Source of the DNA: a bacterium | GTDB lineage: Bacteria > Patescibacteriota > Minisyncoccia > UBA6257 > JAGOQP01 | Assembly: GCA_021812345.1 (NCBI GenBank) | Contig: JAKANP010000003.1 | Coordinates: 82-64,081 of the forward strand | Direction: 5' to 3' | DNA length: 64,000 bases | Translations under genes and position numbers: made by a program | Shown here: one piece after another, positions 39,787 through 57,432 of the stretch | How the letters are laid out: each line of letters opens with the position of its first letter | Position numbering within the stretch: the stretch's first letter is position 1 | Notes under the pieces: generated by a model | The model's input: the letters and a program-made list of their open reading frames with translations, nothing else | Told to the model about the DNA's origin: nothing | Database searches by the model: none

Positions 39787-40452
39787 ATGAATCCTTTGGG
39801 TAAAGTTAAAATCAAATGGTCTCCGAATTTTGCTTACGCGATTGGGTTGATAGCGACAGACGGAAATTTATCATCAAATGGCAGATGTATTGTTTTTACG
39901 TCAAAAGACTTGGAAATGATAAATAATTTTTTAAAATGTCTATCTGTATCTTCAAAAATAAGCATGAAGGCTAGGAGCAATGAGAAAGAGAAGAAGTATT
40001 ATTATGTTCAGATCGGGGATATAAATTTCTATAAGTTTCTGAATTCTATTGGACTTACTCCGGCAAAATCAAAAACTATCGGAATTATTAACATACCTGA
40101 CAAATATTTCTTTGATTTTTTGCGGGGACATTTTGATGGGGATGGCACTTCCTATTCTTATTGGGATAAGCGTTGGAAATCAAGCTTCATGTTTTATACA
40201 GAGTTCATATCGGCCAGTAAAAAACATATTGATTGGCTTAGGGGCGAAATTTCTAAAAAAATTGGAATCAATGGGCATATAACAAAATCAAAAAATAATT
40301 CAGTTTATCAATTAAAATATGCGAAAAGAGAGTCTACAAAATTGATTTCAAGAATGTACTATGGTAAAAAGGTTGTATGTCTTTCTAGAAAAATAGAGAA
40401 AATCAAAAAGGCATTAGCAATAAATAAAGTTGAAGATGCCCAGGTGCTGTAA
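39787..40452 (+). CDS. Free-standing LAGLIDADG homing endonuclease (double motif)
   Basis: Two LAGLIDADG motifs: YAIGLIATDGNLS and FLRGHFDGDGTSY, 221 aa; not inside an obvious intron or intein host; 3' end overlaps tRNA-Leu(GAG) by 15 nt. Confidence 0.8.
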   Translation: MNPLGKVKIKWSPNFAYAIGLIATDGNLSSNGRCIVFTSKDLEMINNFLKCLSVSSKISMKARSNEKEKKYYYVQIGDINFYKFLNSIGLTPAKSKTIGIINIPDKYFFDFLRGHFDGDGTSYSYWDKRWKSSFMFYTEFISASKKHIDWLRGEISKKIGINGHITKSKNNSVYQLKYAKRESTKLISRMYYGKKVVCLSRKIEKIKKALAINKVEDAQVL

Positions 40453-40521
40453 CTGGTAGCCAGGCCAGCTTGAGGTGCTGGTGTCCGCAAGGACGTGGAG
40501 GTTCGAGTCCTCTCCTGGGCA
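40438..40521 (+). tRNA. tRNA-Leu(GAG)
   Basis: GCCCAGGTGCTGTAACTGGTAGCCAGGCCAGCTTGAGGTGCTGGTGTCCGCAAGGACGTGGAGGTTCGAGTCCTCTCCTGGGCA; anticodon loop TTGAGGT, long variable arm. Confidence 0.8.
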
Positions 40522-40558
40522 CAAAACAAAACAGCCAAATAGGCTGTTTTGTTTTGTG
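40522..40558 (+). terminator. Strong hairpin immediately 3' of tRNA-Leu(GAG)
   Basis: acaaaacaaaacagcc-aaat-ggctgttttgttttgt, 16-bp perfect stem. Confidence 0.6.
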
Positions 40559-40720: not shown

Positions 40721-41050
40721 TACTACTTCGCTCCTACTTCGTAGAAACTTCGTAGGACGCGGTAAAGCTTCGTAGCACAAAGCACTACTTTGCTCCTACT
40801 TCGTAGAAACTTCGTAGGACGCGGTAAAGCTTCGTAGCACAAAGCACTACTTTGCTCCTACTTCGTAGAAACTTCGTAGGACGCGGTAAAGCTTCGTAGC
40901 ACAAAGCACTACTTTGCTCCTACTTCGTAGAAACTTCGTAGGACGCGGTAAAGCTTCGTAGCACAAAGCACTACTTCGCTCCTACTTCGTAGAAACTTCG
41001 TAGGACGCGGTAAAGCTTCGTAGCACAAAGCACTACTTTGCTAAAGCTTC
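40721..41050. repeat. Tandem array of 5.2 near-identical 62-bp units with phased TTCGTAG-type subsites (iteron-like)
   Basis: Unit CTCCTACTTCGTAGAAACTTCGTAGGACGCGGTAAAGCTTCGTAGCACAAAGCACTACTTTG repeats without spacers; each unit has three exact CTTCGTAG plus one degenerate copy with start-to-start spacings 11/11/20/20 bp. Confidence 0.9.
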
Positions 41051-41115
41051 TTTTTTTAATAGAGCAAAACATAAAATAGGCCCATCACGGTCTATTTTTG
41101 ATTTTATTTATCAAC

Positions 41116-41144
41116 TTGACACAAGTAATAATATGTGCTAGTAT
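41116..41144 (+). promoter_or_regulatory. Sigma70-type promoter (TTGACA-17-TAGTAT) upstream of the GC-rich ORF
   Basis: Core TTGACACAAgTAATAAT nearly identical to the promoter at 42154; followed by SD AGGGAGG 6 nt before ATG 41249. Confidence 0.5.
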
Positions 41145-41248
41145 TTGCTCATAATCGGGGGATGAGGGATTGTCCCAAAATTCTACCGATACAGCACTCA
41201 ATGTTTTAATGTTTTTGTCCCGATGGGAGTCGGGGCAGGGAGGTCACA

Positions 41249-42025
41249 ATGGAAGCGATGGAGAGAATCAAGGGTTTGATGGACGAGAAGGCCGTCGAGA
41301 AGTGGGCCGGTGAGTTCGGGACCTGGAAGGACAAGATGGTCCACGAGCTCGCCAACGAGCTGTCCAAACGAGGGTTCTCCTCCGAGAACCCGGCAGCGGC
41401 AAAGGACGTCAAGGCGGCCGAGCAGTTTCTGGCCGCCAAGAGGCAGCTCGTGGAGGCGAAGGTCGACGAGACCTTCACCCCCGAGAACATCGCCGCCGCA
41501 CATCTGGACTGCATCATCAAGGTCCAGGTGGATGAGACGCAGGAGTTTCGTGTCATCTGTCAGTCGCCTCGTCACGCCGGGGCGAACATGGCAGTTCTCC
41601 CGACCCAGAAGTTCATCGTCCGCAAGAACGCGGACGGCGAGCTGACTCGGATGTGCCACCAGGGCACATCCGAGGCGATCGTCACCGGCGACTTCCTGGT
41701 CACCGGGGAGGGGCGGATCATGCGCTTCTGTCCCTTCTGCAAGGACAAGGCGATCGCCGCCGCCCGCGAGCGTGGCGAGAAGTTGACGTTCTACCGCCTC
41801 GGCGAGGCGGTGAACAAAATCTCCCGCATCCGGGAGAACGAGGCGCGCGAGGCCGAAGAGAACGCCAAGCGCGAGGCTGAGGCCGAGCGGATGGAGCACT
41901 CGGCTTCCCGACAGATCGCCGGCAAGCGCGTGGACTCCCGACGCGCCGACTTCAACCGTCGGCACACCTCCGGACTCAAGCGTGCCAGCGGAAAGTTGGC
42001 CCGCGATCTCATGAGCGAAGACTGA
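41249..42025 (+). CDS. Orphan GC3-rich protein (foreign-looking), Cys motif FCPFC
   Basis: 258 aa; coding region about 62% GC with strongly G/C third positions in a 35% GC genome; good SD; terminator at 42088; no recognisable domain; the antisense ORF 41198-42046 is a high-GC artefact. Confidence 0.6.
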   Translation: MEAMERIKGLMDEKAVEKWAGEFGTWKDKMVHELANELSKRGFSSENPAAAKDVKAAEQFLAAKRQLVEAKVDETFTPENIAAAHLDCIIKVQVDETQEFRVICQSPRHAGANMAVLPTQKFIVRKNADGELTRMCHQGTSEAIVTGDFLVTGEGRIMRFCPFCKDKAIAAARERGEKLTFYRLGEAVNKISRIRENEAREAEENAKREAEAERMEHSASRQIAGKRVDSRRADFNRRHTSGLKRASGKLARDLMSED

Positions 42026-42087
42026 GTGAAAGCACTCTCTCTTCACTAAATTGACCCTGGAGGAGTCAATAGTGAAGGGAAAAAATC

Positions 42088-53159: not shown

Positions 53160-54152
53160 ATGTTAAATTCAGACGCAAAATTAAATCACAATATTTTTTC
53201 AAGACACATAGATGAAGCACCGACCCGTGACGGATTTGGCAAAGGACTGCTTGAGGCGGGAAGTGAAAAAAATGTTATTGCTTTATCGGCTGATTTGGAG
53301 GAATCCACCCGTTGTCATTGGTTTGCTAAAGTTTATCCGGAAAGATTTATTGAGTGTGGCGTGGCCGAGCAGGGGATGGTAACCATCGCCGCAGGATTGG
53401 CAATTTCCGGAAAAATTCCTTTTGTAAATTCTTATGCCAATTTTTGTCCGGGAAGAACCTGGGAACAGGTTAGAACTACCGCTTGTTATAATAATGCCAA
53501 TGTTAAAATTGCCGGCCATCATGCCGGAATTTCGGTCGGTCCCGATGGAGCTACTCATCAGGCAACCGAAGATATCGCCATAATGCGTGCTTTGCCGAAT
53601 ATGAAAGTAATTGTTCCTTGCGATGCTATTGAAGCTCAAAAGGCGGTTGTCTCTTCAACTCAAATTTACGGTCCCATGTATTTGCGTTTTCAAAGAGAAA
53701 AAACTCCGATAATGACAACCAAGGAAACGCCGTTTGTTTTTGGTAAGGCATATCCTATGTGGATTTCTTCCGGTAAAAATATAGATGTTTTAATAATTTC
53801 AGCCGGACCGATTATTTATAATGCGTTGTTGGCGGCAAAAGAACTGGAAAGAGAAAAAATAAAAACTGTTGTATTAAACAGCCACACCATAAAACCGCTG
53901 GACGAAAAAGAAATTTTAAAGTGGGCGAAAAAAACCGGTGCTGTTGTGACTGTGGAGGAGCATAATATTATTGGCGGATTAGGAGGTGTCGTTTCGGAAT
54001 TGCTTTCTGAAAAAATGCCAACGCCTTTGGAACGAGTCGGCATCAAAGATGTTTTTGGAGAATCGGGTCAGCCCGAAGAGCTTATAAAAAAATACCATTT
54101 GGATGTTAAAGATGTTATTAGCGCGGTAAAGAAGGTTATCAAAAGAAAATAA
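53160..54152 (+). CDS. Transketolase, C-terminal (pyrimidine-binding) subunit
   Basis: FIECGVAEQGMVTIAAGLA and C-terminal domain; 330 aa. Confidence 0.85.
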   Translation: MLNSDAKLNHNIFSRHIDEAPTRDGFGKGLLEAGSEKNVIALSADLEESTRCHWFAKVYPERFIECGVAEQGMVTIAAGLAISGKIPFVNSYANFCPGRTWEQVRTTACYNNANVKIAGHHAGISVGPDGATHQATEDIAIMRALPNMKVIVPCDAIEAQKAVVSSTQIYGPMYLRFQREKTPIMTTKETPFVFGKAYPMWISSGKNIDVLIISAGPIIYNALLAAKELEREKIKTVVLNSHTIKPLDEKEILKWAKKTGAVVTVEEHNIIGGLGGVVSELLSEKMPTPLERVGIKDVFGESGQPEELIKKYHLDVKDVISAVKKVIKRK

Positions 54153-54190
54153 TCAATTCATTTTTATTCTATAAAAATATAACTATAAAT

Positions 54191-54233
54191 TTATTTATCC
54201 TTATTTAATACGATCGTAGAATTTAAGGTGAAA
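54191..54233 (+). repeat. Copy 1 of 42-bp direct repeat ATTTATCCTTATTTAATACGATCGTAGAATTTAAGGTGAAAT
   Basis: 41/42 identical to copy at 54919-54961; about 60 nt upstream of ORF 54293. Confidence 0.85.
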
Positions 54234-54292
54234 TAGATATTTATGTTAATTGTCATTATTTATTAATTTAATTTTTAATTTTAATATTTTTA

Positions 54293-54868
54293 ATGCCAAA
54301 ATTGAGTCCGAGAGTTAAAATAAAAACAGATACAAGAGAGTACAAATTACTCTCTTTTCTCAATGAAGTTGAGAGTGTGATTTTAGATGCGTTTTTCCCC
54401 AAAAAATATCCAGAAGCTGCGTTGTGGAGAGATTTTTTTGGTATAGATTATAAGAATGATATGGATAATAATAAAATAAATTATTTTATATCAAAAACTT
54501 TGGTTCGTTTAAAAAATAAGGGGTTAATTTCAAAAAACGGCTCTACTAAAAAATCAATTTGGAAGATAAATAATGAAGGGAAGAAGATCTTATATTCATT
54601 AAATCGTTTATCTTTACCAAAAAAAGATGGTAAAACTCGCCTAGTTATTTTTGATATTCCGGAAATAAAAAAATATTGCAGGCAATGGATCAGAGATGAA
54701 TTGATCAGACATAATTTTAAAATGCTTCAAAAGAGTGTCTGGATAGGGCAAAGACCATTATCTGAAGAAGTTTTAAGGCACGATAATATGAAAAAAATTA
54801 TTGACAATGTTCACATCCTTGAAATAAAAGATTTAGGCACTTTAGAAAATATTGATTTTGAAGATTAA
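54293..54868 (+). CDS. Winged-helix plus Cas2/PaaX-C-like domain protein (putative regulator)
   Basis: N-terminal wHTH-like (LVRLKNKGLISKNG...SIWKIN); C-terminal RLVIFDIPEIKKYCRQWIRDELIRHNFKMLQKSVW resembles the Cas2-like LVxYDV...R..L...G.R.Q.SV pattern. Confidence 0.45.
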   Translation: MPKLSPRVKIKTDTREYKLLSFLNEVESVILDAFFPKKYPEAALWRDFFGIDYKNDMDNNKINYFISKTLVRLKNKGLISKNGSTKKSIWKINNEGKKILYSLNRLSLPKKDGKTRLVIFDIPEIKKYCRQWIRDELIRHNFKMLQKSVWIGQRPLSEEVLRHDNMKKIIDNVHILEIKDLGTLENIDFED

Positions 54869-54918
54869 AAAAATGTTTTTGTGATAAAATTTAAGTAGTT
54901 CATTTATGTATATATTTT

Positions 54919-54961
54919 TATTTATCCTTATTTAATACGATCGTAGGATTTAAGGTGAAAT
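54919..54961 (+). repeat. Copy 2 of 42-bp direct repeat
   Basis: ATTTATCCTTATTTAATACGATCGTAGGATTTAAGGTGAAAT, upstream of the pfkB-family kinase gene. Confidence 0.85.
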
Positions 54962-55084
54962 GAAATATGAATATAAAATTGAGTTGTTATCTTTTTGATT
55001 TTGTTTTAATGGAATTATTGTTGTGACGTTGGTGTAATAATATTGATGGTGTTTTTTTATAACTAAAAATATTGTATACTATAT

Positions 55085-56149
55085 GTGATACACAAATTAT
55101 TAAATATTCTGATTATGTTGGATGTTATAACTATTGGGACGGTTACCGTTGATACCTTTATTAAGGCGGATTTTTTGAAAACCGTTACCGATAAAAAACA
55201 TTTGGAAAAAATCGGATTTCCTACGGGTCAAGCTCAGTGTTTTTCTTTTGGTTCTAAAATTGAAATCAAAGAACCGATTATTGAAATGGGCGGAGGGGCT
55301 CATAATTCGGCCGTCACTTTTTCGCGGGCAAATTTAAAAACAGCTTCGTTATTTAATGTCGGTTCGGACAAAAATGGAGATTTGATAGTTGAAGAATTTA
55401 TTAAAAAAGGAATTGATCCTTTAACTATTGTCGATAATGGAGAAAAAACCGGCGTCTCTTATATTTTATTGGATAAAAGCGGAGAGAGGACGATTTTGGT
55501 TTTTCGCGGATCATCCGGAGACATTGAAATCAAAGAAATTCCATTTAACAAATTGAATGCCAAATGGGCTTACATTGCCCCCGGAAGCATTCCTGATTCC
55601 GTATTGCTTAAAATTTTCAATTATTTAAAAAAAAATAAAATAAAAATTGCCGTCAATCCGTCAAAGGACATGATTGCGGGGGGAATTAAAAAATGCCGTC
55701 CATTTTTAGATAAAGCGTCGGTAGTTATTATGAATAGAGAAGAGGCATCTTATCTCACAAAAACCTCTTTTGAAAATAAGGAAAGGCTTTTTAAAAAATT
55801 AGACGAATATGTCCCCGGGATTGTTGTAATGACCGACGGCAAAAATGGAGCAATTGTATCTGATGGTAGATTTGTTTATACTTGCGGAATTTTTAAAGAA
55901 AAAAAAGTTATTGACAGAACCGGAGCAGGGGACGCTTTTGGCAGTTCTTTTGTCGCCGGACTCATAGAAACAGACGAGCAGTGTATAAGAGGTATTTGTA
56001 ATCCCAAAAAAATAGAATTTGCTTTAAGAAGGGGAGCGGCAAACGCTACAGCGGTAATAGAAAAAATAGGAGCCACTCCGGGAATTATAACCACTGAAGA
56101 ATTTATGTCTCAAAAAAGATGGAAAAATTTTATCGTTAAAAAAAATTAA
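55085..56149 (+). CDS. PfkB-family carbohydrate kinase (ribokinase-like)
   Basis: C-terminal DRTGAGDAFGSSFVAG PfkB signature; 354 aa (true start may be ATG 55115). Confidence 0.8.
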   Translation: MIHKLLNILIMLDVITIGTVTVDTFIKADFLKTVTDKKHLEKIGFPTGQAQCFSFGSKIEIKEPIIEMGGGAHNSAVTFSRANLKTASLFNVGSDKNGDLIVEEFIKKGIDPLTIVDNGEKTGVSYILLDKSGERTILVFRGSSGDIEIKEIPFNKLNAKWAYIAPGSIPDSVLLKIFNYLKKNKIKIAVNPSKDMIAGGIKKCRPFLDKASVVIMNREEASYLTKTSFENKERLFKKLDEYVPGIVVMTDGKNGAIVSDGRFVYTCGIFKEKKVIDRTGAGDAFGSSFVAGLIETDEQCIRGICNPKKIEFALRRGAANATAVIEKIGATPGIITTEEFMSQKRWKNFIVKKN

Positions 56150-56163
56150 AAAATTATTAAAAT

Positions 56164-57432
56164 ATGATAGCACAAGAAAAGATAGCGCAAATATTGAGAG
56201 CGGATAAAGATGTTGTTTTGGAAACGGAAAAACGCCTTGAAAAAATAACAGGCAAGACGGGAGTTTTTGAATCAATCGTGAGACAAAATGACGAAGCGAT
56301 GGATCAACGATTGGCGATTCTTAATTTGAGCAGAAAATCTTCGGCTAAATCGATTTTTAACGGATTGATAAATAAAATAGAATTGGATAATAAAAAACTT
56401 ATGGAGATAATGAATGAGCCAAATTTTACCTGCAAACAAGGTTGTGAAATTGTGGCAAATTTTGTGTCGTCCGTTGCCGGAAACAGAAACGGATTTTTTT
56501 TAAAGAAAGAAAAATTTATTGAACTGATTAAAGAAATTCCCCCTCAAAAAATTCTTCAAATGCTCGGATATTCTTCCGTTGAAGAATTGATTCAAAAAGA
56601 AGACTGGAAAGAAGTGGCGGCGGCTTTGAGATTTATTCAGGGAGGCGAGTGGATTAACGAAGTATTTTTACCAAAATACAATAAATTGACGGCTGATGAT
56701 TTTGAAAAAAGAGATTTTGAAATTATAGCGCTTGGTCCAAAATGGGAAAAACTTGGAAGAAAATTTGTGGAGAAAAAGTATCACAATATCAGTCATTTAA
56801 AAGAACTTGGAATAATTTTTATAATTCCCGTTTCTTTAAATTTGCCGGGAGAATTAGTGAGAACGGTAGGACTTTTGTTCCACTACATAAACGAGATAAA
56901 ATTTTATTCGGAAATTTTTATAAAAATATCGGAAAATAAAAACGATTTTATAAAAAACATTCAGTCATTATTAAGAGGCGATGTTCCCGATGATAAAAAA
57001 ATTTTATTGTCCGATAATTGGCTTATTGTTCAAAGATATCTTGCCAAAGACGATGAAAATGATTGGCGACTATTTGCGCCTCATTTAAATCCGGAAGCGG
57101 CTCATTGGGAAAAAGCGGAAAAAATGTTCGTTGATTTGGGAACAAAGTATGATTCGTTGGAAAAAGATTTTTCTTTTTGGAAAAACTTGAATTGGGTTGG
57201 AGATTATTTTCCGACCGATACCGGAGTTGATGTTTTGGTGAGTTTTAATCTTATCGACACTTCGATGGCATTGGTTAAAGAAAAAGAAATGATAAAATAT
57301 CTTTATCACCACCAGGAGGCGCTTTGGAATAAAATATTTTATTCTTATTTTGGAGAAGAAAAAACGGAAAATATCGTTAAGAATAATGTTTTAAAGGGTT
57401 ATGTTGAAATTTCTGAAAATTTAATTAAATAA
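56164..57432 (+). CDS. Hypothetical protein (422 aa) embedded in sugar-metabolism gene block
   Basis: Long uninterrupted ORF with tight spacing to pfkB and fba; no recognisable motif. Confidence 0.4.
   Translation: MIAQEKIAQILRADKDVVLETEKRLEKITGKTGVFESIVRQNDEAMDQRLAILNLSRKSSAKSIFNGLINKIELDNKKLMEIMNEPNFTCKQGCEIVANFVSSVAGNRNGFFLKKEKFIELIKEIPPQKILQMLGYSSVEELIQKEDWKEVAAALRFIQGGEWINEVFLPKYNKLTADDFEKRDFEIIALGPKWEKLGRKFVEKKYHNISHLKELGIIFIIPVSLNLPGELVRTVGLLFHYINEIKFYSEIFIKISENKNDFIKNIQSLLRGDVPDDKKILLSDNWLIVQRYLAKDDENDWRLFAPHLNPEAAHWEKAEKMFVDLGTKYDSLEKDFSFWKNLNWVGDYFPTDTGVDVLVSFNLIDTSMALVKEKEMIKYLYHHQEALWNKIFYSYFGEEKTENIVKNNVLKGYVEISENLIK

Follow-up and report, generated by a model that had tools for sequence, protein, structure and literature searches.

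Several bacterial repressors, among them lambda CI (OL/OR), LacI (O1/O2), and GalR (OE/OI), use auxiliary operators that flank or lie inside the unit they regulate. REP-associated tyrosine transposase (RAYT) genes are likewise flanked by cognate repetitive extragenic palindromic (REP) sequences, and their products have an HUH/Y1 transposase fold. To our knowledge, almost nothing is known about gene regulation in the Candidate Phyla Radiation (CPR, or Patescibacteria). The best structural match for the protein described here is PaaX, an autorepressor that occludes RNA polymerase at its own promoter and has the operator TGATTC-N27-GAATCA, a pair of inverted hexamers 27 bp apart (PMC9493321). We analyzed a 64-kb stretch of a Patescibacteriota genome (contig JAKANP010000003.1 of assembly GCA_021812345.1, positions 82 to 64,081; hereafter the window), in which a 191-amino-acid PaaX/Cas2-like protein is encoded between two near-identical 42-nt repeats, upstream of a pfkB-family sugar kinase gene. 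The twin repeats are most likely binding sites for the small protein encoded between them. We assign a probability of roughly 0.68 to the reading, built on sequence comparison, that positions 54184-54961 form a self-contained, autoregulated PaaX-type repressor cassette bracketed by its own operators.

The repeat pair and the protein encoded between its copies

The 42-mer ATTTATCCTTATTTAATACGATCGTAG(A/G)ATTTAAGGTGAAAT occurs exactly twice in the window when up to three mismatches are allowed (54193-54234 and 54920-54961, 41/42 identical), and none of 100 shuffles gave a match. It is the sole dispersed repeat of high identity in the 64 kb. The initial annotation had reported such a near-perfect pair, with starts (54191 and 54919) that are off by 1-2 nt. 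Similarity between the copies reaches 51 nt (48/51, 94%), with 727 nt from start to start (Table 1). Each 42-mer is an imperfect palindrome, CCTTA-N5-TACGATCGTA-N5-TAAGG, whose arms are complementary at 15 of 21 positions, a feature that the initial annotation had not noted. Its layout is a core, ACGATCGT, flanked by spacers of ~7 nt and then by inverted 7-bp outer boxes, TATCCTT and AAGGTGA, which have 22 bp between them and are ~30 bp apart center to center. Copy 1 has its dyad at the 54213/54214 junction and copy 2 at the 54940/54941 junction, and the only A/G difference between the copies (54220 and 54947) is in a spacer.

Copy 1 ends 58 nt upstream of the ATG of the 191-aa open reading frame (ORF), close to the 60 nt first estimated, and its center is 79-80 nt before that ATG. 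Copy 2 begins 51 nt past the stop codon of the same ORF, has its center 72 nt past it, and ends 153 nt before the ATG of pfkB, again in the position originally described. Immediately 3' of the two copies the sequences diverge. The AAGGTG strings and the micro-ORFs of 7 and 12 codons noted at first sight do exist, and the micro-ORFs have no common sequence; the Shine-Dalgarno reading of these strings was dropped because AAGG(TG) mirrors the CCTT of the left outer box. The kilobase at 54001-55000 has the lowest guanine-plus-cytosine (GC) content of the window (26.3%), and the intergenic stretches around the regulator have 13% and 20%.

Table 1. Coordinates of the bracketed gene, its flanking sites, and the adjacent kinase gene in the window
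Feature	Position	Strand	Remarks
Upstream repeat copy, 51 nt	54184..54234		54193-54234 is the 42-nt imperfect palindrome, taken as operator copy 1
Left outer box TATCCTT of copy 1	54196..54202		Positions 12-18 from the dyad
Core ACGATCGT of copy 1	54210..54217		CGATCG-type center, family-wide
Right outer box AAGGTGA of copy 1	54225..54231		Reverse complement TCACCTT matches TATCCTT at 5/7 positions
Mini-PaaX-like protein, 191 aa	54293..54868	+	Winged helix plus Cas2-like PaaX_M, no PaaX_C
Winged helix, residues ~15-105	54335..54607	+
PaaX_M, residues 110-183	54620..54841	+
Downstream repeat copy, 51 nt	54911..54961		54920-54961 is taken as operator copy 2; core 54937-54944; boxes 54923-54929 and 54952-54958
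pfkB-family sugar kinase	55115..56149	+	First of the pfkB / 422-aa ORF / class II aldolase group; Pfam PfkB, 8e-38

The 191-aa ORF is the only one between the repeat copies. Its product matches Pfam PaaX_M (PF20803, "PaaX protein central Cas2-like domain") with 49.3 bits (E = 5.2e-13, cut-off 24) and falls under the cut-offs of the Cas2 models (Pfam CRISPR_Cas2, 21.1 bits against 23.8; TIGR01573, 22.9 bits against 24.5); PADLOC Cas2 models give 2e-5. The NCBIfam PaaX model TIGR02277 scores 25.1 bits against an equivalog cut-off of 264.55, with ORF residues 65-179 aligned to model positions 36-149. The Pfam PaaX N-terminal domain has no match at E ≤ 1, and in profile comparison this part resembles MarR/MecI-type winged helix-turn-helix (wHTH) domains only weakly. 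The C-terminal half had been likened to a Cas2/PaaX-C fold. The Cas2 likeness was borne out, and the PaaX-C label was wrong, since the Pfam match is to the central domain, PaaX_M. PaaX_C has no Pfam match in the ORF, and the C-terminal domain of PaaX is absent because the protein ends ~8 residues after the Cas2-like domain.

An AlphaFold2 model built with 26 homologues (mean predicted local distance difference test score 82.5) has a wHTH (helices 15-26, 40-48, and 59-75, wing 79-92), a linker helix, and a beta-alpha-beta-beta-alpha-beta domain. The top Foldseek match in the PDB is Escherichia coli PaaX (8A39, E = 8e-5, all 191 residues aligned), followed by the PaaX-like Rv0674 and 3L09, several Cas2 structures, and MarR/PadR winged helices, so the similarity to wHTH and Cas2-like proteins originally suspected is found at the level of the predicted fold. 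The Cas2 strings R-L-V-I-F-D-I-P-E and L-Q-K-S-V-W are kept in the family alignment, where D121, E124, R130, R134, Q146, K147, S148, and W150 are invariant. Because these hallmarks (FDIPE with its invariant Asp, and QKSVW) are retained, the protein could have nuclease activity. No HUH, DDE, or recombinase domain was found in the protein. The sensor domain, an equivalog-level score, and a paa context are all lacking, and the protein is therefore not a PaaX orthologue; it is also not a Cas2. By analogy, its predicted mode of action is PaaX-like. As the initial annotation stated, there is no CRISPR-like array in the 64 kb, and none of the 40 other ORFs scanned (≥150 aa) has a PADLOC Cas match at E ≤ 1e-5.

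Homologues are 170-215 aa long, and all 103 carry PF20803. The named hosts belong to Parcubacteria, Sungbacteria, Giovannonibacteria, Nealsonbacteria, and similar CPR lineages. When 1.84 billion cluster representatives were searched with a profile, 3,010 clusters (50% identity) were retrieved at E ≤ 1e-10. More than 511 loci were confirmed in the genome collection, with single metagenome-assembled genomes holding up to at least five copies. No relatives of the protein were found among PLSDB plasmids, INPHARED phages, or IMG/VR viral contigs, and literature searches linking PaaX to Cas2 or Cas2-like proteins or to Patescibacteria, or for ACGATCGT in CPR papers, returned nothing relevant. The family is very large, undescribed, and confined to the CPR/Patescibacteria, with many paralogues per genome.

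Flanking sites across the family

Flanking sequence was surveyed in 80 related Patescibacteria loci (683 kb), 78 of which were evaluable for flanking sites and 58 of which were pooled for site anatomy. Repeats seeded upstream of the regulator recur just downstream of it, and most are CGATCG-centered palindromes. Sites are present on both sides of the gene at 57 of the evaluable loci, on one side at 12, and on neither at nine. The upstream center is mostly 42-53 nt before the ATG and the downstream center 17-70 nt past the stop codon, the downstream site starting 0-30 nt past the stop in many loci. Regulator flanks make up 7.3% of the sequence and contain 137 of the 163 arm-palindromic core sites. 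Because the scan demanded a center of CGATCG or its variants CGACCG, CGGTCG, and CGGCCG, the constancy of C/G at core positions 3 and 2 is not independent evidence. Independent support comes from strong palindromes found without a core requirement in the same 683 kb, 96 of 176 of which have a CGATCG center. The A at position 4, which the scan did not demand, is present in 72% of arms.

Symmetry within the sites is bipartite. Across the 58 pooled loci, arm symmetry is 0.9-1.0 at positions 1-4 (ACGA|TCGT), 0.5-0.8 at positions 5-11, and 0.8-1.0 at positions 12-18, after which it decays. The two copies of a locus resemble each other along the same pattern, their identity having fallen to background by position 24; at the box positions (12-18), symmetry is 81%-100% and identity between flanking copies is 81%-96%. 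Among arm mismatches on the sense strand, G:T does not clearly outnumber A:C (60 vs 65 at upstream sites and 82 vs 59 at downstream sites). Relative to the upstream copy, the downstream one has direct orientation at 19 loci and inverted orientation at 18, with 21 ties. The symmetric core and boxes, the loose spacer, the similar G:T and A:C counts, and the random orientation indicate a symmetric protein site on double-stranded DNA rather than an RNA hairpin.

The outer boxes vary between loci (0.2-0.8 bit per position), and paralogues in one genome have differing boxes. When each upstream box was compared with all downstream boxes, the one from the same locus ranked first in 28 of 58 cases and within the top three in 48. 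The homologue at locus L001, 44% identical to the window protein, has the box GTCCCTA, which is related to the window box. When similarity in the rest of the protein was controlled for in a partial Mantel analysis, residues 64-72 (the predicted recognition helix) had the highest correlation with box similarity (r = 0.217, P ~ 0.003). By eye, the two residues after the conserved helix Ser recur with the same box in separate clades (ST with TCAACA, SA with TTAACA, SM with TATACA, SS or SK with TCC-type boxes). Together these observations are only suggestive of box identity tracking the recognition helix. Mutual information between protein columns and box positions had been tried and was set aside in favor of the partial Mantel analysis; its signal spread across the whole protein and was uninformative because of phylogenetic confounding.

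The downstream site is kept whatever gene follows. By ORF calls, the next gene is on the opposite strand in 30 of 79 loci, some of which hide a tRNA gene, and the downstream site is still present. At locus L042 the palindrome fills the 49-nt gap between convergent stop codons, and the corresponding gaps at L014, L028, L033, L035, and L040 are 85-106 nt. Neighbors on either side are unrelated housekeeping genes, including those for aminoacyl-tRNA synthetases, SecA, RpoC, GroEL, UvrA, a type II/IV secretion ATPase, FtsW, and ParAB. From the presence of the sites regardless of what adjoins them and from the unrelated neighbors, we conclude that the site pair belongs to the regulator. The proposal that the repeats are a duplicated operator of the encoded wHTH protein is supported by the family-wide layout, the matching boxes, and the PaaX-like half-site geometry. 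Its corollary of specific pfkB control is not supported, given downstream sites that are kept even where a convergent gene follows the regulator at only 49-106 nt and neighbors without a common function. Regulator genes also seldom have an intrinsic terminator of their own once the palindrome is excluded (~7/78, vs 121/415 other genes), a depletion that would fit, without proving, a bound site acting as the downstream gene boundary.

Further sites in several places, namely loci L070, L075, and L080, the loci near tRNA-Glu, and a groundwater sample, mean that family members can have regulons. At L070, L075, and L080 one palindrome recurs in front of each of several genes in a row, whose products include a cyclodipeptide-synthase/solute-binding fusion, an Asp/Glu racemase, a Mur-ligase-like protein, and a major facilitator superfamily (MFS) transporter. 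In these loci (L070 4843-8025) and in L068, the palindrome GTGTGACAG...GCGACCGC...CTGTCACAC stands between genes whose content changes from one related genome to another, in a series that always ends at the same 399-aa MFS transporter, which is either a local regulon or a row of variable cassettes. The downstream palindrome of three Sungbacteria-type loci (L006 5624-5696, L013 4191-4265, and L016 5690-5764) lies 70-90 nt before tRNA-Glu(ctc), and L013 and L016 have a second palindrome with different boxes 3' of the tRNA gene. A scan of metagenomes with the half-site pattern of the window found one groundwater sample in which the operator TCTCCTTAATTC-TACGATCGTA-GAATTAAGGAGA flanks a family member (three sites) and recurs at four more intergenic places on contigs of equal coverage, at least seven sites on four contigs in all; one of the extra sites is 68 nt upstream of an aminoacyl-tRNA synthetase gene. 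Tandem doublets or triplets of the cognate palindrome, 58-186 nt apart, occur beside the regulator in L029 (3652-3962), L052, L072, L050, L048, and L094 (137/323). Two metagenomic loci with a matching palindrome, L093 and L099 (Ga0268261_10065009 and Ga0209738_10038682), span 1.8-3.2 kb in which genetic code 11 yields no ORF of ≥90 aa; their source lineage may use UGA as a sense codon, or the stretches may be non-coding.

The tktC-pfkB junction and competing explanations

Three relatives, with pfkB genes 89%, 75%, and 70% identical to that of the window, keep the order rpiB-rpe-tktN-DUF5671-tktC-pfkB-(422/423 aa)-fba. Their tktC-pfkB junctions consist of a hairpin terminator and a short promoter region, to which the closest relative adds an unrelated 102-aa ORF. 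Neither the cassette nor a CGATCG palindrome is present at this junction in any of the three. A 191-aa ORF in one relative (L091), considered as a paralogue on account of its length, was rejected as an unrelated membrane-like protein without palindromes. This absence supports the small inserted cassette that had been offered as an alternative, and gain of the segment in the lineage of the window is the more parsimonious reading of the comparison. The cassette and operator readings are each partly right. Homology between the window and the closest relative ends at the coding ends of tktC and pfkB, the intergenic region being unrelated, so that no insertion boundary or target duplication is definable. 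Nor is there any sign of recent mobility as judged from sequence; the closest homologue from any source has 46% identity, and the identical protein is seen solely in this gene context.

The last ~60 nt before pfkB resemble the promoter region of the relatives, with TATACT ~40 nt before the ATG, and copy 2 lies more than 100 nt further upstream. The relatives without the cassette show that the pfkB group is served by a promoter of its own and can do without this kind of regulator. A protein bound at both sites could still gate read-through into pfkB, because no plus-strand terminator is detectable from tktC through the regulator to pfkB. We regard meaningful control of pfkB by the regulator as doubtful, if a serious possibility. 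On this reading, a conserved pentose-phosphate/glycolysis cluster has received the cassette as an accessory insert, which is not the ancestral controller of pfkB.

In the repressor model, the operator would be a bipartite palindrome of ~36-42 bp in which the two inverted 7-bp boxes, ~30 bp apart center to center, are recognized by the pair of winged helices in a dimer, in the manner of PaaX. The family-wide ACGATCGT core would be contacted by some conserved region of the protein close to the dyad, perhaps the Cas2-like dimer; a dimerized Cas2-like domain over the dyad is proposed because the invariant core pairs with the invariant domain and the variable boxes with the variable helix. Binding at the upstream site would repress the regulator's own promoter. 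The site past the stop codon would serve as an auxiliary operator, acting either through cooperative looping or by stopping read-through from both sides as a roadblock or insulator, and a codirectional next gene, here pfkB, could also be gated by it.

Several observations weigh against this model, which is a construction from sequence throughout. The center of the window site is 79-80 nt from the ATG, vs a family mode of ~47, and no third site for the window's regulator was found within the 64 kb. Its promoter cannot be placed from the sequence; promoter-like sites in a sigma-70 consensus scan were no commoner than in shuffles of this AT-rich spacer. The distance between paired sites (556-958 bp) has no periodicity at 9.5-12 bp of the kind expected from helical phasing. 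In about one-quarter of the family's sites the palindrome is perfect over 34-58 nt, a degree of symmetry beyond what protein contacts require. Two segments of the Cas2-like domain, both helices, nearly equal the recognition helix in their correlation with the boxes. Finally, a downstream operator between convergent stop codons, as at L042, has no classical promoter to control, and any role for it there is conjecture.

The cassette could instead be mobile or selfish, its palindromes being ends, recombination sites, or members of a low-copy REP-like family and its protein an end-binding nuclease or mobilizer. Its presence or absence at the same junction in close relatives is in keeping with this, as are the position of cassettes between unrelated housekeeping genes, the several divergent copies that one genome can hold, each with its own flanking palindrome, and the orphan palindrome copies in at least one population (groundwater). 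The window adds a regulator ORF of low GC content (28.3% vs 37.5 ± 3.2% for other ORFs), retained Cas2 hallmark motifs, and operator copies that are near-identical even in the spacer (41/42), where they are closer than the family average. We nevertheless consider mobility unlikely. Near-identical copies are found nowhere, the protein's closest relative is distant and its exact form tied to one context, plasmids, phages, and viral contigs hold no relatives, and the fold includes no transposase or recombinase domain. The lack of a definable boundary or target duplication points the same way, and symmetry within the site is lowest in the spacer, the reverse of what a REP sequence selected as a hairpin would show. 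A broader version, in which the site-gene-site units are CPR-wide self-bracketing Cas2-fold elements whose protein recognizes, and perhaps cuts or copies, the flanking palindromes and a few other intergenic sites, is in our view quite unlikely. If true, it would mean a REP/RAYT-like or proto-CRISPR-repeat-like system with a Cas2 fold, spreading in streamlined genomes and replacing terminators or insulators between housekeeping genes.

Transcribed hairpins flanking the regulator mRNA (bidirectional terminators, a structure in the 5' untranslated region, or a binding site for the Cas2 fold acting like an RNA recognition motif) would account for downstream sites that closely follow the stop codon and can be the sole element between convergent genes. 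They would also account for the depletion of separate terminators and for the perfect palindromes, some of which have an inner stem followed by a U-tract-like TTTGTT box. This RNA-level explanation is very unlikely, since pairing is weakest where a stem needs it (50%-80% at positions 5-11), the sense strand has no clear G:T excess, and the arms in the window are complementary at just 15 of 21 positions. No T-run follows either window copy, no plus-strand terminator was detected in 54050-55250, and Rfam scans of the region at a permissive E-value and of the whole window gave nothing relevant. The predicted fold of the 153-nt stretch from copy 2 to pfkB is no more stable than shuffles (z = -1.0). 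A duplicated promoter or leader, with AAGGTG as the ribosome-binding site of leader peptides that couple the regulator to pfkB, is scarcely credible. The strings and the 7- and 12-codon ORFs do follow the two copies, but AAGG mirrors the CCTT of the palindrome and the micro-ORFs are unlike each other, with none apparent in the related upstream regions displayed (no systematic scan was made). The boxes differ across the family, most without a Shine-Dalgarno-like string, and the relatives express pfkB from a terminator and promoter region that has no such element.

If the repressor model is correct, each family member carries a readable putative operator, an invariant ACGATCGT core with locus-specific boxes, on both sides of its gene. 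This would offer a direct route to regulon prediction in uncultivated genomes, a natural set of protein-operator pairs from which to derive a recognition code, and a test case for the role of a Cas2-like domain outside CRISPR. Self-bracketing even between convergent genes raises the question of whether looping, roadblock insulation, or mobility is at work.

Other features of the window were recorded alongside these. The 422-aa ORF between pfkB and the class II fructose-bisphosphate aldolase gene (56164-57432) has no Pfam, NCBIfam, or meaningful PDB sequence match, and an ORF of 422-423 aa occupies the same position in all three relatives examined, making it a conserved unknown of the sugar-phosphate cluster. 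At 40722-41042 there are 5.2 copies of a 62-nt unit, 98% identical, which immediately follow tRNA-Leu(gag) (40438-40522) and a LAGLIDADG-like ORF (39787-40449). These repeats are followed by a ~1-kb island (41001-42046) with 57.8% GC in a window of 37% GC, with long overlapping ORFs on both strands and no Pfam match, and which is not rRNA. The repeats and island could be a foreign insert beside a tRNA gene or an assembly join.

Comparison with known systems

Like PaaX (E. coli W structure 8A39; also 3L09 and Rv0674/3KFW), the window protein combines a predicted N-terminal winged helix with a Cas2-like central dimerization domain, and the putative sites resemble the PaaX operator in having two inverted boxes about three helical turns apart, with 22 bp between the boxes in the window and family. 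PaaX differs in being ~305 aa long with a phenylacetyl-CoA-binding PaaX_C; the window protein has 191 aa, no PaaX_C, and an N terminus unmatched by Pfam PaaX. PaaX is associated with paa genes, whereas no paa genes are near the window gene, whose neighbors are pentose-phosphate and glycolysis genes. The extra invariant ACGATCGT core at the dyad belongs to the mini-PaaX family and not to the PaaX operator, and a site on each side of the protein's own gene is a habit of this family that has not been described for PaaX.

Cas2 and VapD-type proteins share the ferredoxin-like fold, the string (V/I)-F-D-I-P-E, whose Asp closes strand 1 and is invariant, and the string Q-K-S-V-W. In contrast to Cas2, the window protein is fused to a winged helix, scores just below Cas2 cut-offs, and has neither an array in the window nor a cas1 match among the 40 other ORFs scanned, and its repeats bracket a gene rather than the short spacers of CRISPR. 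The hallmarks of insertion sequences (near-identical copies, target-site duplication, and a transposase domain) are lacking in the cassette, and those of intrinsic terminators (a contiguous G+C-rich stem and a U-tract) are lacking in the window palindromes. The likeness to REP/RAYT systems lies in a small gene bracketed by its own palindrome, paralogues with different palindromes, and some extra intergenic copies. The mini-PaaX family differs in having no HUH/Y1 fold, a bipartite symmetry with a loose spacer, and an apparently low copy number, with two copies in the window and at least seven in the groundwater population. As for lambda CI, LacI, and GalR, two putative operator copies a few hundred base pairs apart surround the gene presumed to be controlled, an arrangement compatible with cooperative looping. 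Those repressors differ from the mini-PaaX family, in which looping is putative, site distances have no phasing, and one site on each side of the repressor's own gene is conserved across a very large membership. What makes the system interesting, and calls for explanation, is this conserved placement of a core-plus-boxes operator on both flanks of the gene.

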